Positions 9,522-64,000 of a stretch of 64,000 bases of DNA are shown here, piece by piece (the first letter of the stretch is position 1; each line of letters starts with the position of its first letter). The notes under the pieces are model-generated. The model was not told the origin of the DNA. It did not search any database and saw nothing but the letters and a program-made list of their open reading frames with translations. The DNA is from Promethearchaeota archaeon (GTDB lineage Archaea > Asgardarchaeota > Lokiarchaeia > Sigyniarchaeales > SOKP01): assembly GCA_011364975.1 (NCBI GenBank), contig RDOE01000006.1:1-64000 (forward strand), given 5' to 3'. A program made the translations under genes and the position numbers.

Positions 9522-10196
9522 ATGCCGTTAATTTTATTATTAGTAGAATGCGGAATAGAATTAATCCCAACAAAAATCGAAAGTCATCCTTCGATTCAAC
9601 GTAATTTAAGGAAGGATAATTATTCATCAAAACTACTTGATAATGCCTTACACCACTCTGCAATGAATAAGCTGGAAAATTTTGAAAAGCGAGGGCGTCC
9701 TGATATTGTTCATAATTGTCTACTAAATGCCTTAGGATCTCCGTTAAATAAAAGTGGTAATCTTAAACTTTATATTCATACTTATCATAATAAAATTTAC
9801 GAAATTAATCCTGTGATTAAATTAACAAGGAATTATAATAGATTCAAGGGATTAATGGCAAAACTTCTCTCTGAAAATGAACTAAAATTTGAAAAACTTC
9901 AACTCATTTCACAATTTAAAGGAGAATTAAAGGATCTTATCAATAAATTCAAAAAGAGTGATATTATGATTTTATCCACGAAAGGGGACTTAATAAAGTA
10001 TCAAGATTTATTGTTTGAAAAAAATATAACTAGTAATTACATTATAATAATTGGTGGTTTTCAAAAAGGATTTTTTTCTCCCAAGATTTTAGAACTAAGT
10101 AAAAAACTTATTTCGATTTCAAATTACGCTCTTGATGCATGGGTCGTTGTCAATAAAGTTATTAGCCTTTATGAAATTGCAAATGATATTTTATAA
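9522..10196 (+). CDS. nep1: rRNA small subunit pseudouridine methyltransferase Nep1/Emg1
   Basis: LLDNALHHSAM, RGRPDIVHNCLL, RNYNRFKGLMAKLL, IIGGFQKG. Confidence 0.95.
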   Translation: MPLILLLVECGIELIPTKIESHPSIQRNLRKDNYSSKLLDNALHHSAMNKLENFEKRGRPDIVHNCLLNALGSPLNKSGNLKLYIHTYHNKIYEINPVIKLTRNYNRFKGLMAKLLSENELKFEKLQLISQFKGELKDLINKFKKSDIMILSTKGDLIKYQDLLFEKNITSNYIIIIGGFQKGFFSPKILELSKKLISISNYALDAWVVVNKVISLYEIANDIL

Positions 10197-10302
10197 TTTA
10201 TTAGAGATGAGAAAGTTTTTTTTTAATCATTAATATAGATCATTAATTCAGAATATTTTGCGATTAGTTTAAGATCTCTCTCAATTTACTCATTTCTAAA
10301 TT

Positions 10303-10373
10303 GCGCTCGTAGTATAGAGGTAGAATCGTGGCCTTCCAAGCCATGGACGCGGGTTCGAATCCCGCCGGGCGCA
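10303..10373 (+). tRNA. tRNA-Gly(TCC), no intron
   Basis: GCGCTCG/CGGGCGC acceptor stem, anticodon arm GTGGC-CTTCCAA-GCCAT, T arm GCGGG-TTCGAAT-CCCGC. Confidence 0.95.
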
Positions 10374-10423
10374 TTTTTCTAGGAAAATAGAATTAAATCT
10401 AATTAATACATATATATAACGCT

Positions 10424-10981
10424 TTAATAGTAAATCCTATTCATAATGACCTTTCCCTTATCTGAAAATTTGATACCTTCTAATTCTAATAATGAGTGTT
10501 TCATAGGTATTCCTCCTTGAAAACCTCCCAAATCGCCATCTGATCTGATTGCTCTATGGCAAGGAATCATAATGGGGAATGGATTCTTAGCTAATGCATT
10601 TCCAACAACTCTAGACGCATTTGACTTACCTAAATGCTCAGCAATGCGTTTATACGTGCTAATCCATCCTCTAGGTATTTCAGATTCTGCTAAAAGTACT
10701 TTGGTTTGGAATTCAAAGCACCGATTAAAATTCAGTAAATTTAATTGAAATTTAATATCTTCTCCTTGGAAAAATCTTTGAATTTTTTCATTTAACAAGG
10801 TAATTGACGGTGAAGAGCCTAATTTCATTGTTTTAAAGGTGTTTAATGCTTTTTTATCCGATTTTAGTTCAGCATCACTAAGAAATATACGTTCTATCCT
10901 AATTTTAGATTCCTCTTCTTCCCATACAATTGTATAAGGATTAAATGGAGATGAAAAAGTTTTATATAAAAAAATGCTCAT
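10424..10981 (-). CDS. ogt: Methylated-DNA--protein-cysteine methyltransferase
   Basis: IPRG..STYKRIA, ASRVVGNALAKNP, active-site IPCHRAI, LLELEG. Confidence 0.95.
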   Translation of the reverse strand: MSIFLYKTFSSPFNPYTIVWEEEESKIRIERIFLSDAELKSDKKALNTFKTMKLGSSPSITLLNEKIQRFFQGEDIKFQLNLLNFNRCFEFQTKVLLAESEIPRGWISTYKRIAEHLGKSNASRVVGNALAKNPFPIMIPCHRAIRSDGDLGGFQGGIPMKHSLLELEGIKFSDKGKVIMNRIYY

Positions 10982-57108: not shown

Positions 57109-58392
57109 TTAATCATACCCAAAAACTTTTTTTATTTGATCAATTCGTTTCTTTCCTTTCTCAAGACGAATTTGCGCCATTTTAGGGTGTTCATTTAAAA
57201 GAAAGGGATATTTTCCCAACAATTTTCTATCATTATCTTCTAGTACTTCATTCTTGCTTAATTTTTCAATAATTATAATTAGTTCATTATAATTTTTAGA
57301 AGCAGCATCTTCATAGAGTTGTTCTAGCATAAATTCAGAAATATTTTCATTTTGAAAATGATTGATGTAATCAGTGGTAATTTTTTCTTGTTCCTCAAGT
57401 GAGATCATCCCCTTCTTTGAGTTTACATTAAAGGGAGAATCTTCTGATTGCTCAACATTAATGTAAGTTCTCTTGTTAGATTTATATTTAATTGCGGACG
57501 ATGGAATAAACTCTCCCTCATCAATTATATTCACCAAAATATCTGTAATTTCGTTACTTAAATTATTCAATTCAGAATTTAAAAAATGTTTAAAGATACC
57601 TACTTTTAAAAGCTGAGATAAATCCTCAACTTCCCAATCTTGCGTTTTTTCAACTATAGTATCAATATCGAATACAATTTTCGGGTTATTTTCTGAAAAG
57701 TTTTTTAATAGCTCCTGCCGTTCAATATTATCTAATATAGGTATCTTTATGAACAAATCAAAAATATAATATATTTTATTTTGATTTGCTAAGATATCAT
57801 CATAACAATTATTAATCCAAATCAATATGGTGTGATTTTTAATGAAAAAATCAGAATTTTTGAAATAGTTAATAAACCTGGAAAGAAAGTATTTTTCTGT
57901 AAAAAAATAGGGTGGAAACTCACGTTCATTAAAAATTAAAATCTTAAAATTATTTTTTGAATCTCCTAAATTATTATTTTCAATAGAAGATTGTTGAGAG
58001 ATTTCCTTTTTTATATTTTTATTTGATTGATTAATTATAAATTCTTCAATAACTATAGGAAAATCATCTATAAAGTCTTTCGGATTACTAAATATTTCAT
58101 TATAATTCAATTCTATTAATTTTAACTGATAGTTTTTAGAAATCAGCTTTAAGTAAAATTCGATATCACTACCTGGATTGATGTTTATTAATAGGCAACC
58201 CTTCGGGTTTATATATCTTAAATAATCGACACTAACAGTATCTTCGAAATTGGTTAAAATGATTTTTAAATAATTGATTATTGTATTATATTTCTTTCGA
58301 TAAAATATATCTGCTTCATCAATATTGATTTCGGTTGATGAAGTTATTCGAAAATATTTCACTTGGTTCAAATCTTCTTTCGATCTTTCCAT
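57109..58392 (-). CDS. Degenerate AAA+ (Cdc48/PAN-like) domain protein
   Basis: PKGCLLININPGSDI at the Walker A position (no GKT), ILIFNE at Walker B, IFDLFIKIPILDNIERQELL..DIDTIVEKTQDWEVEDL lid region. Confidence 0.65.
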   Translation of the reverse strand: MERSKEDLNQVKYFRITSSTEINIDEADIFYRKKYNTIINYLKIILTNFEDTVSVDYLRYINPKGCLLININPGSDIEFYLKLISKNYQLKLIELNYNEIFSNPKDFIDDFPIVIEEFIINQSNKNIKKEISQQSSIENNNLGDSKNNFKILIFNEREFPPYFFTEKYFLSRFINYFKNSDFFIKNHTILIWINNCYDDILANQNKIYYIFDLFIKIPILDNIERQELLKNFSENNPKIVFDIDTIVEKTQDWEVEDLSQLLKVGIFKHFLNSELNNLSNEITDILVNIIDEGEFIPSSAIKYKSNKRTYINVEQSEDSPFNVNSKKGMISLEEQEKITTDYINHFQNENISEFMLEQLYEDAASKNYNELIIIIEKLSKNEVLEDNDRKLLGKYPFLLNEHPKMAQIRLEKGKKRIDQIKKVFGYD

Positions 58393-58665: not shown

Positions 58666-58920
58666 TTATTTTTTACCTTCCTTACCATAAATACAAAACC
58701 AGCCGCCTTCTAGTTCATACTTCTCAAAGATCCCACAACCAAAGCAGAAACATCCATTATCTTTTATTTCAGATAAATGCTGGTCTGTTTTTCCCCGTGA
58801 ACAGAAAAGAGCATGTGGTTCTATTTCATTTAACTTATTTGGTTTAAATGAAGGACAAGAACCACAAAATTGGCGACAAACTTTAATAGAATCCTCCGTA
58901 TCGGGGACAGGATCTGGCAT
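58666..58920 (-). CDS. Small Cys-rich protein (DUF2769-like)
   Basis: C..FCGSCPSF, LFCSRGK, GCFCFGC, WFCIYG. Confidence 0.75.
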   Translation of the reverse strand: MPDPVPDTEDSIKVCRQFCGSCPSFKPNKLNEIEPHALFCSRGKTDQHLSEIKDNGCFCFGCGIFEKYELEGGWFCIYGKEGKK

Positions 58921-59094
58921 TATAATCTCTTAAAATTTAATTAATAAAATAGATTTTTAAATCTGATAATTCTCAACTATATTCAAAAGAACTTTATCAC
59001 CATTTAAAGTTAATATTTATAGTTTATTAGTTAAAATTGTAAAGAAGCAGAGTTTAAATTAATTTTCAGAATTGAATGACAACATACTTAGGTT

Positions 59095-59502
59095 TTAGTC
59101 AAATTGCAATTCTTTTTTAATCTGATTTAAATATTGATTGAAATTCTCTTTAAGAAGTGAATAATATGTAAATTTTCCTTTTTTCCAACCACGTATAAGA
59201 TTTAATTTCTCTAACTCTCTTAAATGATGCGAAATAGAAGGCTGAGACTTATCTAAAATTGTTTCCAATTCACATACGCATCTATCTTTATCCTTTAGAA
59301 CGTTTATTATAATTAATCGTTCCCTATTTCCAACTACGCTAAAAAAATCAACTATTTGATTAATTTTAGTATCTGTTTGTAACTCTTTTCCTATTCGCTG
59401 TAAAGATATGAAAAGCGTATTAATATCTTTACATTCATCACAAGAACATAACATTTTTTTTATATCATTTTGTCGTTTAGTTTTAATTTGACGCACCACC
59501 AT
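59095..59502 (-). CDS. arsR: ArsR/SmtB family metalloregulator
   Basis: RLIII..L..DRCVCEL, SQPSISHHLRELE, KKGKFTYYSL; extra N-terminal CSCDEC; divergent from acr3 operon. Confidence 0.9.
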   Translation of the reverse strand: MVVRQIKTKRQNDIKKMLCSCDECKDINTLFISLQRIGKELQTDTKINQIVDFFSVVGNRERLIIINVLKDKDRCVCELETILDKSQPSISHHLRELEKLNLIRGWKKGKFTYYSLLKENFNQYLNQIKKELQFD

Positions 59503-59572
59503 TAGAGTATTATAATCTCAACAATATACATTATAGTTATAAAATTATAAAAGTTTTATTCAAATAAATTTT

Positions 59573-59624
59573 TTTCGATTCAAATCGAAATCTTTTTATT
59601 TGAGATAGAATAATAAGATCTCAA
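59573..59624. promoter_or_regulatory. Candidate ArsR operator(s) in the divergent promoter region
   Basis: TTTCGATT-CA-AATCGAAA (59573-59590) and TTGAGAT-N11-ATCTCAA (59600-59624) inverted repeats. Confidence 0.45.
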
Positions 59625-59658
59625 GCTCTAACCAATTATATTTAAATTTAATATAATA

Positions 59659-60384
59659 ATGCAAACTATAAATAAATTAAAGGTTGGAGTAATTTCAGAT
59701 GGGAAATACGGTGAGAGAGCTTACGAGAATATCAAAAAGACCTTTAATACGACTTGGATATTAGTACCAAATATTGAACCCAACATATTAATAGAAGATA
59801 ATCTCGAATTAATAATTCCTGAATGTGATGTTTATATCTCCTATGCTAGACATCCAGATATAATATTGCAAATTGCTGAATTGAAAAAACCATTAATTTT
59901 AGGAGTGCTTCCTGGTTATGGACTTTATCAACAAGCAAAGAATATTAATAATCAAACCATTCACGCTCCTACTATGTGTTCTTTAGAAAATCACACGGGA
60001 ATTGTTGAGGTTGACACATTCATTTCTTTCTATGGAAGACCCATATATGAACTTAAAATAAATGAAGAGGGAATAATCCAACAAATCAAAGTTTTGCGTT
60101 CATCTTTATGCGGATCTTCTGAAGCAGGAGCTAAATTCTTGCTAAATAAACAAGTGAATGAAGAAAACCTTCAACAATTTGCTCTAAACGTTTGCCATGA
60201 GTGCCGAGCTCCGAGATTTGGGCGTACTTGTGATAAAGAAGTAGCAGGAATAATTCATTTGTGCTCATTAATAGAAAAATTTCCTCCTGAAACATATAAT
60301 AAATTTGATAAAGGCCTAATAGAATTTATAGAAAATATTAAAGACCAATATAAAATTAGACATGAAAAATCAATATTAGAGTAA
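59659..60384 (+). CDS. DUF166-like protein
   Basis: DGKYGERAYENI, HPDI, PTMCSL, GRP, VLRSSLCGSS, Cys-containing C-terminus CHECRAPRFGRTC. Confidence 0.7.
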   Translation: MQTINKLKVGVISDGKYGERAYENIKKTFNTTWILVPNIEPNILIEDNLELIIPECDVYISYARHPDIILQIAELKKPLILGVLPGYGLYQQAKNINNQTIHAPTMCSLENHTGIVEVDTFISFYGRPIYELKINEEGIIQQIKVLRSSLCGSSEAGAKFLLNKQVNEENLQQFALNVCHECRAPRFGRTCDKEVAGIIHLCSLIEKFPPETYNKFDKGLIEFIENIKDQYKIRHEKSILE

Positions 60385-60389
60385 TTAAT

Positions 60390-61451
60390 ATGGTTGAAGA
60401 GAAATTTGAAAGTGAAGTTAAAGAAAAATTAGAAGAAAAGAAGGACCAAGAATCTCGAAAGATTAATTATTTTGAAAAGTTGCTACCACTCTGGGTCGCA
60501 ATCTGCATTTTCATTGGGATCTTGCTTTCTCAAATGGTACCACAAATTAGCGAAGCGATTGATTCTCTGCAGATTGGTGGTATTTCAATACCTATAGGGA
60601 TTTGTTTATTTTTAATGATGTATCCCGCAATGTTAAACTTACAAGTTTCTGAACTGAAAAAACTAGGTAAAAACCCGAAACCCATTATTTTAACACTTGT
60701 ATCTAATTGGTTAGTAGCGCCATTTGTAGGTCTAGCAATGGTAAACATTTTTCTACCAGGTGATACAGTAGCCATACGTCAATTAAGTGTAGCTATCATT
60801 TTGTTATCAAGTTCGCCTTGTACTGCGATGGTATTAGTATGGGGTTGGATGGCAAAAGGAAATCAAGAACAAAACGTATTAAACACTAGTTTAAATACAA
60901 TTACAATAATTTTTGGATATGTTGGAATGGTCTCTCTTTTAACAGGTATACAAAATATTCCTATTAATACTTGGCTTTTACTTATTTCACTGATTTTTTT
61001 CATTGGTTTACCCTTAGTTTTGGGGATATTATCTAAAAGATTTATTGTAAGATCAAAAGGCTTAGAATGGTTTAATGATACCTATAGACCTTTCGTGGGA
61101 AAAGTATCGATTGTAGCATTATTAACTACCCTAATAGTCTTATTTTCTTTAAATGGAGATGTCTTGATTAATAATCCTGACTTACTTTTACTTGTTTCTA
61201 TACCATTACTGGTCGGGTTTGTTATCGTAGTTGGCTATAATATCTTAATAACAAAGGTTTTTAAACTGAAATACAAAGAAGCGGTAATAACAGTGATTAT
61301 CGGTTCTTCCAGCCATTTTGAAATTGCAATCGCTACCGCCGTTGCAATGTATGGAATTGGATCATTTGCTGCGTTAGGAACAACGATGGGTTTATTTTGG
61401 GAAGTACCTGTGATGTTGAAAAGTTGGATTTTGGAAATAAAGAGTGATTAA
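60390..61451 (+). CDS. acr3: Acr3-family arsenite efflux transporter
   Basis: FEKLLPLWV, LMMYPAM, SPCTAMVLVW, SSHFEIAIATAV, EVPVML. Confidence 0.93.
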   Translation: MVEEKFESEVKEKLEEKKDQESRKINYFEKLLPLWVAICIFIGILLSQMVPQISEAIDSLQIGGISIPIGICLFLMMYPAMLNLQVSELKKLGKNPKPIILTLVSNWLVAPFVGLAMVNIFLPGDTVAIRQLSVAIILLSSSPCTAMVLVWGWMAKGNQEQNVLNTSLNTITIIFGYVGMVSLLTGIQNIPINTWLLLISLIFFIGLPLVLGILSKRFIVRSKGLEWFNDTYRPFVGKVSIVALLTTLIVLFSLNGDVLINNPDLLLLVSIPLLVGFVIVVGYNILITKVFKLKYKEAVITVIIGSSSHFEIAIATAVAMYGIGSFAALGTTMGLFWEVPVMLKSWILEIKSD

Positions 61452-61497
61452 TTAATTTAAACCGATTACAAAAAAACAAAGAGATGAAAGAGATAAA

Positions 61498-63150
61498 GTG
61501 GCAGTAGTCTATATGAAAAAGTTGGAGGAAGAACCTGAAACCTATGATTCTAAATTTACGACGCTAACAAAAGGTGTTAATATAGACGTTCAGAGTTGGA
61601 TCCTGGAAAAGTTTGATACCAGTCAGTCAATTTTAGACATTGGCTGTGGTCCCGGTACTTTAGCAAAAAAATTAGCTTTAATGGGAAATAAAGTCAAAGC
61701 AATCGATATCAATTTCAAAATGATTAAATACGCGATAGATAATTATCCAACTGAAAAGGAAGTCGATCTCTTATACCAAATCGGATCATTTGAAAATCTA
61801 CAGGAGAATTCTGAGCTTTATGACACCGTAATCAGCACATTTATGATTTCAGAGTTAAATCAAATAGAACAACAAATCTTTTTAAGAACAGTGTGGAAAT
61901 TAATTAAAAATAATGGAAGGTTAATAATCGCTGCGGAATTTATACCATCTGGTTTGTGGAAAATTATCTTTAAATTGAAACGATGGTGGTTTAAAAAGAA
62001 GATACATCGACTACGGTTAAGAGGAACTCATATTATTAAACATTTTTTAGACTACCTAAACCCGATAGGATTTGAGATTATGTCTGAAAAACACTGGAAT
62101 CATGGATCCATTAAGGCATTAGAATTGAAAAAGATCCAAAATAACGAGAACAATGAACCAGGATATTATCGGCCTAAAACTAAAAAATTTACTGGTTTCA
62201 AATCTCAAATTAGAATATATCGTTGTCTTTTTACAGGGCAAGTGGATAGAGTGCCAATAGAACCTGGCCTTTATAGAAGCGGTAACCCTACTGAGGAGTC
62301 TCCTATTGTTGTTACAGCTAATTATGAATATACGTATATAAAAGTTATGCGTGATCTTAGAGATTTGGACGCTTGGGTTTTATGCGTTGATTCAAATGGT
62401 ATAAATGTTTGGTGTGCCGCCCGAGGTAATGATTTTGGCAATAAGCAATTAATCGACGCGGTTAATGGAAGTGGAATTGACAAGATTTCGAAAAATAACA
62501 AATTAATTCTTCCACAATTGTCCGCTGGAGGGATATCAATTCCAAAATTAGCTAAGAATTTTCCATTTAAAATTGTATATGGCCCTGTTTGGTCTAAACA
62601 TTTGAAAAAATTTATAGAAAATCGTCCGATAAAAAAACCAGATTCGATGAAACTCGCAAAATTCACATTTTCCCATAGGATCAGAGCTGGAATCACTCAC
62701 ACAACATTCTTATTTCGTAAGATCTTTTTATATCCTCTTTTAGTTTTGTTGCTTTCACTTTTAATACTCAATCAAATTGACAAGTTATGGTGGATTGGAG
62801 AATTAGCAATATGGATAACTTTTTCAAATGCTGTTATAGCAATTTTTTTCCCCTTATCTAAATTTACAAGGAATTTTATAATAAAAAGTTTATTTTTTGG
62901 AATTTTAAATTTGATACTTTTTAGCTTTATTACTTGGTGGATTCATAATTCGCTCATATTTATGTTAACAAATACAGGAATACTTTTTTGGATAAGTTTT
63001 TTTTCTACTATGTCATTTAGTGGATACACGATGGCTACAAATCCAAGAGAAATTCAAAATGAATATCCCATCTTCCGGAAAATAAATATTAGTCTAATAG
63101 TAATTGTGATAATTTTATTAGGATTAAATATAATATTTTTCATAAATTAA
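61498..63150 (+). CDS. Class I SAM methyltransferase fused to HgcA-like corrinoid-binding domain and TM domain
   Basis: N-terminal ILDIGCGPG; central IEPGLYRSGNPTEESPIVVTANYEYT, VDSNGINVWCAARG, LILPQLSAGG, YGPV; C-terminal 4-5 TM helices with SGYT..REI. Confidence 0.9.
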   Translation: MAVVYMKKLEEEPETYDSKFTTLTKGVNIDVQSWILEKFDTSQSILDIGCGPGTLAKKLALMGNKVKAIDINFKMIKYAIDNYPTEKEVDLLYQIGSFENLQENSELYDTVISTFMISELNQIEQQIFLRTVWKLIKNNGRLIIAAEFIPSGLWKIIFKLKRWWFKKKIHRLRLRGTHIIKHFLDYLNPIGFEIMSEKHWNHGSIKALELKKIQNNENNEPGYYRPKTKKFTGFKSQIRIYRCLFTGQVDRVPIEPGLYRSGNPTEESPIVVTANYEYTYIKVMRDLRDLDAWVLCVDSNGINVWCAARGNDFGNKQLIDAVNGSGIDKISKNNKLILPQLSAGGISIPKLAKNFPFKIVYGPVWSKHLKKFIENRPIKKPDSMKLAKFTFSHRIRAGITHTTFLFRKIFLYPLLVLLLSLLILNQIDKLWWIGELAIWITFSNAVIAIFFPLSKFTRNFIIKSLFFGILNLILFSFITWWIHNSLIFMLTNTGILFWISFFSTMSFSGYTMATNPREIQNEYPIFRKINISLIVIVIILLGLNIIFFIN

Positions 63151-63174
63151 CAATAAATAATATAATTATAATTA

Positions 63175-63510
63175 ATGGTGATGAGAATGGTTGAAGCAAA
63201 TAATAATGCTTGTTGTAATACGAACACATTAGATAATATTCTTAATGTTCTAAATATAAGAATTATGATAAAAGAGCCCGAATGTACGGGTTGCGGACTA
63301 TGTGCTGAAATTTGTCCATTTGGATTACCTAAATCCAATGGGAATGGCAAATTTGAGATACCACATCCAGAATTATGCACCGAATGTAGTGCGTGTCAAC
63401 GAAATTGTCCTGTAAATGCCATTATATTAAATGAACAGAAAGGATGTGGATGTTTATGGAATGCTCGCCAAGCGGTCAAAAACAAACAAAACCAATGTAA
63501 TTGCTCGTAA
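63175..63510 (+). CDS. 2x[4Fe-4S] ferredoxin, HgcB-like
   Basis: CTGCGLCAEICP and CTECSACQRNCPVNAI, plus GCGC, terminal CNC and N-terminal CC; directly after the HgcA-like gene. Confidence 0.85.
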   Translation: MVMRMVEANNNACCNTNTLDNILNVLNIRIMIKEPECTGCGLCAEICPFGLPKSNGNGKFEIPHPELCTECSACQRNCPVNAIILNEQKGCGCLWNARQAVKNKQNQCNCS

Positions 63511-63543
63511 ATAACTAAAAAACAAAGATAGAATGGTGATTTA

Positions 63544-63819
63544 ATGGCTCAACAGAACAATAAGTTGAAGGTAGATATATATGTTCCTTTAGATGCATGT
63601 GCCTGTGAGTGGGATAAGTTCATGAATCGAGTATTTGAGGCAATTACACCTTTCATAAAATATATAAAATATGATACTAAAAATTTAAATTCCGATGAAG
63701 CTCGTAATCTTAATCTACATGGAAATTGTATTGTTGTCGATGGTCAGAGAAAATTTACCGCGGCTTATCTTTTAAAAAAGGAATTGCCTAATATTTTACG
63801 GGAAAAAGGGATTATTTAA
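63544..63819 (+). CDS. Small thioredoxin-fold-like protein with CxC motif
   Basis: VDIYVPLDACACEW and CIVVDG pattern. Confidence 0.55.
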   Translation: MAQQNNKLKVDIYVPLDACACEWDKFMNRVFEAITPFIKYIKYDTKNLNSDEARNLNLHGNCIVVDGQRKFTAAYLLKKELPNILREKGII

Positions 63820-63854
63820 ATTATTTAAAATTAATTTAGGTTTTGGAGGTAAAA

Positions 63855-64000
63855 ATTATTAAAAAGATTCATTTTGAAATCAGCTTACCTATAAAAGGGC
63901 TTCAGCAAGGTAAAAAGTATGACATCAATATTAGAGATGAGGGAACATTTTTAGAAGCTTTAGCTCTAGTTGATAAAGTAGAAATGGAGGCACCTGAAGG
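63855..64000 (+). CDS. Partial ORF running off the window end, possibly beta-grasp/ubiquitin-like fold
   Basis: GGAGGT then ATT ATT AAA AAG..: IIKKIHFEISLPIKGLQQGKKYDINIRDEGTFLEALALVDK; an in-frame TTG also exists at 63843. Confidence 0.45.
   Translation, partial: MIKKIHFEISLPIKGLQQGKKYDINIRDEGTFLEALALVDKVEMEAPE

Follow-up and report, generated by a model that had tools for sequence, protein, structure and literature searches.

We describe a locus at positions 58666–63819 of a 64,000-nucleotide (nt) stretch of contig RDOE01000006.1 (assembly GCA_011364975.1, Promethearchaeota archaeon); that whole stretch is called the window below. At the centre of the locus stands a gene for a class I S-adenosylmethionine (SAM) methyltransferase fused to a corrinoid and membrane protein of the HgcA family, and this gene is embedded in an arsenic (ars) operon. 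Seven genes occupy the locus, two on the minus strand (encoding a DUF2769 protein and ArsR) diverging from five on the plus strand. An earlier note on this DNA, which we call the original prediction, had listed these genes with their strands and coordinates, and Pfam and NCBIfam scans confirm the list. The features, including an open reading frame (ORF) that continues the operon, are given here with lengths in amino acids (aa).

58666–58920, minus strand: small Cys-rich DUF2769 protein, 84 aa (PF10967, 47.6 bits)
59095–59502, minus strand: ArsR/SmtB metalloregulator, 135 aa (PF01022; NF033788, 68.9 bits, cut-off 55)
59582–59603, plus strand: candidate ArsR operator, 22 nt, AAATCGA-N9-ATTTGA, within an inverted repeat at 59560–59603
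59659–60384, plus strand: DUF166 protein, 241 aa, first plus-strand gene of the operon (PF02593, 99.9 bits)
60390–61451, plus strand: Acr3-type arsenite efflux permease, 353 aa (TIGR00832, 259.2 bits, cut-off 282.8; PF01758)
61498–63150, plus strand: fusion protein, 550 aa, CpaM-type SAM methyltransferase plus HgcA-family corrinoid and transmembrane (TM) protein
61498–62133, plus strand: methyltransferase domain of the fusion, residues 1–212 (NF043040 CpaM, 139.5 bits; PF08241, PF13649)
62254–62652, plus strand: corrinoid-binding domain of the fusion, residues 253–385 (PF03599), with the cap helix GINVWCAARG at 62398–62427 and Cys306
62668–63144, plus strand: membrane domain of the fusion, residues 391–549, five helices (DSSP helices in the AlphaFold2 model)
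63175–63510, plus strand: HgcB-like ferredoxin with two [4Fe-4S] clusters, 111 aa (two CxxCxxCxxxCP motifs; NF040864, 51.8 bits)
63544–63819, plus strand: p91, thioredoxin-fold protein with a conserved CxC, 91 aa, without a Pfam or NCBIfam family
63843–64000 and on to contig position 64214, plus strand: p123, conserved ORF of 123 aa, without a Pfam or NCBIfam family

The gaps between the plus-strand genes measure only 5 to 46 nt, with the ferredoxin gene starting 24 nt 3′ of the fusion gene, and such spacing suits an operon, which agrees with the operon-like run of the original prediction. The operon extends past 63819: p123 stands directly after p91 and is followed on the same contig by a YdjM-type membrane protein, so that the order reads arsR, divergent from DUF166, acr3, fusion, ferredoxin, p91 and p123.

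The fusion is not a product of assembly. Contigs from two public sequencing runs span the junction between the domains (61342–63371 in run X1, 61366–62914 in run X4), and the best 120 database clusters are all 541–578 aa long, with 59–96% identity at 95–100% query coverage; those with names are each a "methyltransferase domain-containing protein" from metagenome-assembled genomes (MAGs) labelled Promethearchaeota, Hodarchaeota, Hermodarchaeota, Odinarchaeota, Heimdallarchaeota or Lokiarchaeota. We surveyed 301 genomes of the phylum, among them 68 other genomes of the window's family. A full-length copy is present in 47 of those 68 (54–68% identity) and a copy cut by contig ends in 4 more, and a second family contributes one genome with a match, at 51% identity. 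Junction-spanning contigs, full-length clusters and family genomes together rule out an artefact. Sequence near-identical to 59000–63900 occurs in 20 DNA runs from 7 studies of marine sediment, estuary, mangrove and soil; no RNA run is among the public runs listed for it.

The three parts named in the original prediction (methyltransferase, corrinoid domain, membrane domain) are all there. A class I methyltransferase fills residues 3–210, its best NCBIfam match being CpaM (NF043040) over model positions 2–214 of 216. PF03599 (CdhD) matches at residues 240–343, and residues 252–540 match both the HgcAB-like model (NF043039, 182.4 bits) and the HgcA model (NF040863, 172.7 bits). The motifs DIGCGPG and GINVWCAARG stand at residues 47–53 and 301–310, as had been read. 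An alignment of 57 sequences shows no variation at the glycines of the SAM-binding motif (G49, G51, G53), at the acidic D70 or at N303, V304 and C306 of the cap helix, and Cys306 is kept in 121/121 close and 23/23 distant fusions compared. The methyltransferase domain has a single Cys, which belongs to the GCG motif. Translation probably begins at the ATG at 61513, because M6 is invariant in the alignment and the nearest cluster, P0001 (96% identical), is 545 aa long.

An AlphaFold2 model built on the 57 sequences (predicted local distance difference test score, pLDDT, 90.3; predicted template modelling score, pTM, 0.86) runs from a Rossmann-type strand/helix domain through a linker helix and the corrinoid domain to five long helices, which DSSP places at 391–423, 427–454, 460–483, 486–510 and 516–549. 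Its best structural match in the PDB is 9a0b_A, a deposited HgcAB model (E 1.3e-11, 324 columns, TMt 0.58), with class I methyltransferases next (TMt up to 0.76); in a sequence search of the PDB the only corrinoid proteins matched were CFeSP large subunits (2h9a_A, residues 244–376, E 1.7e-8). We regard the family and the architecture of the fusion, as assigned here, as all but certain.

Position within the HgcA family

A search of 1.84 billion representatives with residues 236–550 returned 934 matches at E up to 1e-3, and we examined the best 150 of these 934, to which the following counts refer. The cap-helix motif of HgcA is N(V/I)WCA(A/G)GK, and nearly all stand-alone proteins of 300–430 aa read NVWC[AS][AG]GK. 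The GK is missing in 12/12 representatives longer than 500 aa with the corrinoid part after residue 230, where the helix ends in RG (seven), GG (three), GA (one) or SE (one), and proteins with a C-terminally fused ferredoxin have yet other endings. The window's fusion, with NVWCAARG, shows RG at the place where nearly all stand-alone HgcA representatives show GK. Canonical HgcA representatives carry no methyltransferase domain, which bears out a statement of the original prediction.

Our more careful phylogeny (IQ-TREE, 69 rows, rooted on five CdhE sequences; the fragments P0122 and P0124, half of the canonical representatives and seven near-duplicates were left out) separates the HgcA family from CdhE at 100/97, which rules out a grouping of the central domain with CdhD/CdhE. 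Canonical HgcA forms a clade of 24 rows (100/87) with the window's fusion outside it. The sister clade, of 40 rows (95/84), holds that fusion and every methyltransferase-linked form; there, bacterial fusions are the first to branch off, and HgcAB-like forms sit nested within the fusions. A quick tree of 98 rows gives the same result, and the same two-clade split, with Asgard sequences in the fused-HgcAB subtree, is described by Lin et al. (PMC10083202). The term "HgcA-like" in the original prediction is thus right as to family; what it describes is not HgcA with an added domain but a member of a sister clade, HgcAB-like/CpaM, already modelled at NCBI. On these models (cut-offs: NF040863 HgcA 275, NF043039 HgcAB-like 285, NF043040 CpaM 180, NF040864 HgcB 99 bits) the canonical representatives P0139 and P0140 reach 429 and 377 bits for HgcA. 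HgcAB-like proteins and triple fusions pass NF043039 (309–398 bits), and those of their loci or proteins with a methyltransferase domain also pass the CpaM model at 248–282 bits (L032 282, L034 256).

Arrangements of the modules were taken from 20 further Asgard loci, 13 second-tier and 7 third-tier (the first tier being the 15 related genome loci, at 57–65% identity), and from database matches. Each sister-clade form examined has a CpaM-type methyltransferase, fused or adjacent. In one arrangement a methyltransferase::HgcA(TM) fusion is accompanied by a separate ferredoxin, as in the window, in the 13 second-tier loci, which come from two other families, and in proteins named from bacterial MAGs (Abyssubacteria, Hydrogenedentota, Poribacteria and Lindowbacteria); one of the second-tier fusions, L019, scores above the CpaM cut-off (222 bits) and passes neither corrinoid model. 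In another, a separate CpaM of 220 aa stands with an HgcAB-like protein of 365–369 aa (L032, L033). In the third, all three modules form one polypeptide of 601–655 aa (L034–L038), and proteins of similar length from Desulfobacterales and Marinimicrobia MAGs also match this triple fusion. That the same modules occur fused or split in three ways is our chief reason to think that the methyltransferase acts on the corrinoid protein or together with it, and the pattern fits the reported finding that SAM methylates purified HgcAB (PMC11588087).

The existence of a CpaM model, and the name CpaM carried by the 527-aa bacterial fusion P0294, make it evident that NCBI curators are aware of the association between methyltransferase and corrinoid protein, and the kind of system, HgcA-family corrinoid methyl transfer, is known. 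In the open-access literature, with supplements and subscription journals lying outside the search, we found no published description of a methyltransferase::HgcA fusion or of the name CpaM. A new finding, within the limits of that search, is that this fusion, paired with a separate HgcB-type ferredoxin, appears to be the widespread and early-branching architecture of the sister clade. Its embedding in a complete ars operon of sediment Asgard archaea, with p91, p123 and DUF166 as companions, is new as far as the literature was searched. Among the bacterial fusions, P0235 and P0271–P0312 (loci L052–L060) are 522–537 aa long, read NVWCAAG[AGE] or NVWCAASE and come from high-GC contigs; in three of these loci (L054, L056, L059) a gene for Lgt (prolipoprotein diacylglyceryl transferase) lies divergently upstream.

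Three known groups invite comparison. With HgcA/HgcB (NF040863/NF040864; Pseudodesulfovibrio mercurii ND132) the window's system shares the PF03599 corrinoid domain, the NVWCA cap helix with its Cys, the membrane domain of five helices and a neighbouring two-cluster ferredoxin whose cysteines include one past the second cluster and a pair at the C-terminus; ars genes and a regulator of the ArsR family are likewise often close by (bioRxiv 10.1101/2022.10.17.512643). It departs from HgcA/HgcB in belonging to the sister clade, in scoring below both model cut-offs, in having RG and not GK in the cap helix, in its fused class I SAM methyltransferase, and in its setting between acr3 and further ars-linked genes. 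With the HgcAB-like/CpaM group (NF043039/NF043040), of which "fused HgcAB" was first seen in Pyrococcus furiosus and the candidate phyla OP8 and OP9, it shares the clade and the three modules. There, in contrast, the ferredoxin domains are fused and lack the GCGC motif and the C-terminal Cys of the window's ferredoxin, which is encoded by its own gene (the fusion matches only positions 14–258 of the 350 in NF043039). The window's protein also stays under both cut-offs of that group, the HgcAB-like forms are nested within the fusions, and an arsenic operon context is apparently no part of the family description. The CFeSP proteins (CdhD/CdhE in archaea, AcsC/AcsD in bacteria) have a homologous corrinoid fold, seen in the PF03599 and 2h9a_A matches, and DUF166, which has a gene in this operon, is tied to CODH/ACS in a methanogen. 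Unlike CFeSP, the fusions have a Cys in the cap helix as well as membrane and SAM methyltransferase domains; they form a clearly separate clade, and the genome has its own CdhD and CdhE elsewhere.

The arsenic operon and the companion genes

Counted only in related loci with enough flank, ArsR is present in 11/11 with at least 3.4 kb upstream, Acr3 in 11/12 with at least 1.3 kb upstream (it is missing in L012, where DUF166 abuts the fusion), DUF166 in 8/12, the ferredoxin in 13/13 and p91 in 12/12 with enough downstream flank. In seven loci (L003, at 9979–10431, L005, L007, L008, L009, L010 and L016) an ArsC-like gene follows p123. With acr3 upstream and the ArsC-like gene downstream, the module is bracketed by ars genes and hence lies inside an ars operon. 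The best family of the two ArsC-like copies scanned is the thioredoxin-type arsenate reductase TIGR02691, at 131–141 bits (cut-off 174.3). A cold-seep survey describes Asgard lineages as being without arsC1 and arsC2 (PMC10060404), and scores this low may explain why hidden Markov model (HMM) cut-offs miss the ArsC-like genes of Asgard archaea. In the window's own genome, which marker genes show to be 99% complete, no ArsM reaches the NF008823 cut-off of 263 bits (best 56.2 bits), and the only Acr3-like gene is the one at this locus.

Two further associations are independent of the first-tier arrangement. In the second-tier loci L022, L024, L025 and L026 a same-strand ArsR-like gene, with a CVC motif and N-terminal cysteines, stands directly upstream of the fusion. 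Among canonical hgcA metagenome loci, 11/63 have ArsR, Acr3 or ArsC-like neighbours (Acr3 in 6), and L092, L093 and L096 show the order ArsR-Acr3-hgcA-hgcB. The statement in the original prediction that hgcAB often lie near ars genes is borne out by these counts, which also reproduce the description by Gionfriddo et al. of hgcAB co-localised with ars genes in some hgc+ MAGs, and of an ArsR-like regulator upstream of hgcAB that responds to arsenic and S-adenosylhomocysteine (bioRxiv 10.1101/2022.10.17.512643).

ArsR itself scores above the cut-off of NF033788. Its CVCE motif stands just before the helix-turn-helix in 12/12 sequences (the window's and 11 orthologues), and an N-terminal Cys cluster is kept in all 12, as LC[SA]C in 11; the CVC site is the one that senses As(III) in R773 ArsR. 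The inverted repeat in the divergent intergenic region, with arms of 21 nt, has the candidate ArsR operator as its right half. The strict pattern of this half occurs once in the 64-kb window against a chance expectation of 0.27, which is not significant there (at least one match in 24/100 shuffles). A looser form lies in the same intergenic region of 11/13 loci, often twice; these loci are related by descent, so the counts are not independent and 11/13 overstates the evidence. A second conserved block, 3′ of the candidate operator (window 59604–59632, and L004, L007, L010, L011, L014, L015 and L017), reads about TTCTATTAATATCTTAAGCTCTAAC in the relatives and ...GATAGAATAATAAGATCTCAAGCTCTAAC in the window, and is possibly the TATA box and B recognition element (BRE) region of the plus-strand operon.

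Acr3 matches model positions 2–322 of 327 in TIGR00832 and falls short of that cut-off. In the window's acr3, 29 nt are missing behind 61417 that are present in the contigs of 3/4 public runs compared, and the frame of the last residues is shifted. All 9 orthologues end in ...EVPVMLS[IM]VY[LF]G[RK][YF]L and a tail of 9–18 residues (7 with ...GFWK.. at the end), and the window's protein ends in ...EVPVMLKSWILEIKSD; the altered 3′ end is either a strain variant or an assembly error. In L003 (3583–6803), and in the matching gap of L008, about 3.6 kb are inserted between acr3 and the fusion, with two minus-strand ORFs of 869 and 204 aa in L003 that have no Pfam family.

The DUF166 protein has conserved cysteines. 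The genome holds a second and more typical DUF166 gene on a 5.6-kb contig, C71. No cdh genes are on that contig: CdhC, CdhD and CdhE are encoded on others, and the Wood-Ljungdahl methyl branch is present. The C71 neighbours of this copy are ORFs without a family and a gene (L133, 102–2015) whose 637-aa product has a pair of small-GTPase domains (Ras/Roc and Arf matches). CODH/ACS contains a PF03599 corrinoid protein that is a homologue of HgcA. In Methanococcus maripaludis a DUF166 gene is reported to be cofit with the CODH/ACS operon (r 0.94–0.99), and its deletion to abolish CO2 fixation, with complementation in trans (bioRxiv 10.1101/2024.03.05.583561). We infer that DUF166 may assist PF03599-type corrinoid proteins and that the copy in this operon would serve the fusion. 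The membership of DUF2769 in the system is uncertain; its orthologues, with conserved cysteines, lie beside arsR in 3/15 related loci (L008, L010, L011).

The ferredoxin had been predicted to be HgcB-like, and its cysteines agree with that. All 14 first-tier ferredoxins have both cluster motifs, GCGCLW just past the second cluster and a C-terminal CxC or CC; the second-tier ferredoxins retain the GCGC motif and the C-terminal Cys. The GCGC cysteine aligns with the conserved G-x-G-C position of 16/16 canonical HgcB sequences, and the C-terminal pair with the canonical C-terminal Cys motif, carried by most of the 16. The equivalents of these residues in HgcB, Cys73, Cys94 and Cys95, are reported to be critical for mercury methylation (PMC11588087). 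The ferredoxin gene adjoins the fusion gene in all 13 second-tier loci, as in the first tier.

The small protein p91 gave no Pfam family even at E up to 1. Its AlphaFold2 model (pLDDT 86.9) matches thioredoxins in Foldseek (TMq 0.39–0.64, best E 4.5e-4), with the CxC in the place of the thioredoxin CxxC, and C19 and C21 are invariant in 13 sequences. An ArsD-like chaperone was considered and rejected: the 50 Foldseek matches shown are generic thioredoxins, with no ArsD among them, and Pfam gave nothing. Against a protein atlas, clusters of PF13192 (Thioredoxin_3) come up at only 0.87–0.89, which is a lead and not a finding. A three-chain complex prediction lends weak support to p91 as a partner, with a score of 0.57 against 0.00 for the best of 3 controls; in calibration the mark was reached by 58/80 solved complexes and 2/110 mismatched pairs, scores that passed it at 0.60 or under comprised 7 of the 80 solved complexes and both passing mismatches, and the p91 run, with its own alignments and three chains, is unlike that calibration. 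The runs agree in at least 82% of contacts, with partner pLDDT of at least 79. Four p91 orthologues would have N-terminal extensions if the longest ORFs are real (L004 9065–9451, L010 9111–9428, L013 9038–9463, L017 9023–9409); those in L004, L013 and L017 are rich in CC pairs and look like a metal(loid)-binding tail, and that in L010 has no Cys.

The next gene, p123, is found after p91 by tblastn in 14/42 loci searched (12/15 genome loci plus L064 and L065) and can be read whole in L018 (344–715). A further, more distant copy occurs in L004, L013 and L064.

A proposed methyl relay and its alternatives

We suggest that this locus is an ArsR-controlled ars operon with a built-in corrinoid module, in which a methyl group would be relayed from SAM to the corrinoid and on to a metalloid bound by thiols, which is probably As(III) or Sb(III). 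We give this reading about an even chance (roughly 0.5). Its parts differ in strength: the relay from SAM to cobalt is likely, a metal(loid) as methyl acceptor is slightly favoured, and arsenic or antimony in particular is a tentative choice. Binding of As(III) or Sb(III) at the CVC site of ArsR would release the operon. The HgcB-like ferredoxin would reduce the cobalamin held by Cys306 to Co(I), and the N-terminal methyltransferase domain, having bound SAM, would convert it in cis to methyl-Co(III). The methyl group would then pass to a metalloid held on paired thiols, those of the ferredoxin (GCGC and the C-terminal CxC) and possibly the CxC of p91, which may deliver the substrate or re-reduce the product. 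DUF166 is possibly an accessory factor for such corrinoid proteins, and Acr3 would export unmethylated As(III) in parallel. Like the original prediction, we infer the loading of the methyl group in cis, the nature of the substrate and the coupling to Acr3.

The relay draws support from the invariant SAM-binding residues of the methyltransferase domain and from the report that SAM supplies the methyl group when canonical HgcAB is studied in purified form (PMC11588087). For the metalloid link we count the non-enzymatic methylation of As(III) by methylcobalamin and glutathione (PMC6950371), the conserved paired cysteines of the ferredoxin and of p91, and a lone Acr3-like gene in a genome with no ArsM above the cut-off.

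A number of observations weigh against our proposal. The arsenic link is strong only in the window's own subclade, so that the connection with ars genes drawn in the original prediction holds for this group of Asgard archaea and fails among more distant homologues: outside the subclade Acr3 was found at 0/13 second-tier and 1/7 third-tier loci, and ars genes at 0/5 bacterial fusion loci with flanks. Clustering by blastp of the flanking ORFs of 20 loci gave the distant fusions no recurrent neighbours besides the ferredoxin and an ArsR-like gene, the latter in 4 loci, and Pfam scans of 20 immediate neighbours found unrelated families only. Closer to the window, no ArsR or Acr3 was found within 6 kb upstream in L063, L064, L066 and L067 (57–63% identity). 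In a tree of the subclade the ars-linked state occupies early branches and the loci without ars genes form one clade and one single row, a pattern that suggests a single ancient arrangement, broken up later on at least two occasions. Part of the conserved gene order is plain synteny, since p427, an unrelated 427-aa protein without a Pfam family (57109–58392, minus strand), is likewise kept beside the ars locus in 9/15 related loci, at 43–52% identity. When the proteins are scored against HMMs, as the original prediction had proposed, HgcB is the best family of the ferredoxin, at 51.8 bits for a cut-off of 99, and the fusion stays under all three of its own cut-offs (HgcA 172.7/275, HgcAB-like 182.4/285, CpaM 139.5/180).

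The chemistry also gives cause for doubt. ArsM methylates As(III) straight from SAM and needs no corrinoid, so that the corrinoid, the ferredoxin and the membrane domain lack an obvious reason. ArsM and the fusion have in common the fold of class I SAM methyltransferases, a gene that neighbours an arsenite pump in an ars operon under ArsR control, and the proposed product. They differ in that the fusion scores 21.5 bits on NF008823 and that a corrinoid would intervene; ArsM binds As(III) through conserved cysteines, and the methyltransferase domain of the fusion has no conserved Cys besides the one in GCG. Acr3 is an As(III) pump, with no known role in the export of methylated arsenic. Among relatives only the fused HgcAB of P. 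furiosus has been tested; it made no methylmercury, and this was the sole product assayed (PMC4646819).

It is conceivable that the relay from SAM to cobalamin ends on no metal at all, the acceptor being a membrane lipid, a quinone, a small thiol or a protein, and the ars context being inherited synteny or shared regulation. Most fusion lineages, which have no adjoining ars genes and whose neighbours are mixed (GNAT, radical SAM, Na/Ca exchanger, aldo-keto reductase, Lgt, MarR), would be accounted for in this way, as would the four first-tier-like loci without ArsR and Acr3 and the syntenic p427; the five-helix membrane domain counts in its favour, and so does a match of 84.5 bits between the L032 CpaM and the model of the UbiE/MenG subfamily, enzymes that act on membrane quinones. 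We nevertheless hold a non-metal acceptor to be quite unlikely. In several loci acr3 and the ArsC-like gene bracket the module, CVC-type ArsR-like genes stand directly upstream of second-tier fusions in a different arrangement, canonical hgcAB gathers ars genes independently, and the separate ferredoxins keep paired cysteines of a soft-metal type that the fused ferredoxin domains are without. A role in reactivation alone is in our view very unlikely. In MetH, SAM and a low-potential electron donor methylate protein-bound cob(I/II)alamin, and a SAM module with a ferredoxin is what such reductive remethylation needs; the two might here only restore oxidised cobalamin, with another donor or another reaction in catalysis, for example metalloid dealkylation or reductive dehalogenation. 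MetH, for its part, has an activation domain that lies outside the Rossmann-type class I methyltransferases, and its methylation is a repair, the catalytic acceptor being homocysteine. A methyltransferase in every sister-clade form, mostly fused, would be a heavy investment for repair, and the loci show no recurrent partner that is another methyltransferase or of a dehalogenase type. The genome does have a Wood-Ljungdahl methyl branch with CdhC, CdhD and CdhE, and a 2026 preprint reports that expressed HgcAB dechlorinates CCl4 (bioRxiv 10.64898/2026.04.26.720869); for HgcAB, however, SAM is described as the catalytic donor and the methylation of cobalamin as effectively irreversible (PMC11588087).

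That the locus encodes a true mercury methylase, a functional HgcAB whose SAM binding has shifted to the fused domain, seems to us highly improbable, even though the HgcA-type cap helix with its essential Cys, the five TM helices and an HgcB-like partner with a middle Cys and a C-terminal pair are all present. The equivalents of those cysteines are critical in HgcAB, for which SAM is the methyl donor (PMC11588087), and a metagenome survey counts Asgardarchaeota among putative methylators (PMC12484752). Set against this, the fusion lies outside the canonical HgcA clade, with an HgcA score 172.7 against a cut-off of 275 where canonical representatives reach 377–429, and GK is replaced in 12/12 fusion representatives. 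The cultured member of the sister clade made no methylmercury (PMC4646819). The surrounding operon is an arsenic one, and mer genes were not seen there.

The proposal of a SAM-fed relay to a metalloid can be extended to the whole superfamily, although we consider the extension unlikely. HgcA proteins would then be, at their root, methylases of arsenic-group metalloids that work from SAM through cobalamin, mercury methylation by canonical HgcAB would be a side reaction, and the Asgard operon would preserve the native arrangement, with ArsR as the sensor, Acr3 as the pump, methyltransferase::HgcA and HgcB as the methylase, p91 as the thiol carrier and the ArsC-like protein as the reductase. The part of DUF166 would be to activate or mature PF03599 corrinoid proteins in general, in the fusion module and in CODH/ACS alike.

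Consequences for hgcAB and for arsenic methylation

This locus bears on the debate over the native substrate of hgcAB and over the reason for its retention in microbes. Native roles proposed so far include antimicrobial production, arsenic resistance and the dehalogenation of halomethanes (PMC10083202; bioRxiv 10.1101/2022.10.17.512643; bioRxiv 10.64898/2026.04.26.720869). Independently of biochemical work, the methyltransferase fusions of the sister clade lend genomic backing to the 2024 finding that the methyl donor is SAM and not methyl-tetrahydrofolate (PMC11588087). With the module placed in a complete ars operon in one widespread group of sediment Asgard archaea, and in a genome where no ArsM was found, corrinoid-dependent methylation of arsenic or antimony becomes a concrete hypothesis. 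If it is true, surveys that count only arsM would underestimate the anaerobic methylation of arsenic, and the operon would give a candidate role for DUF166. As read from its genes, the locus suggests that microbes may have a second route by which to methylate arsenic-like elements.

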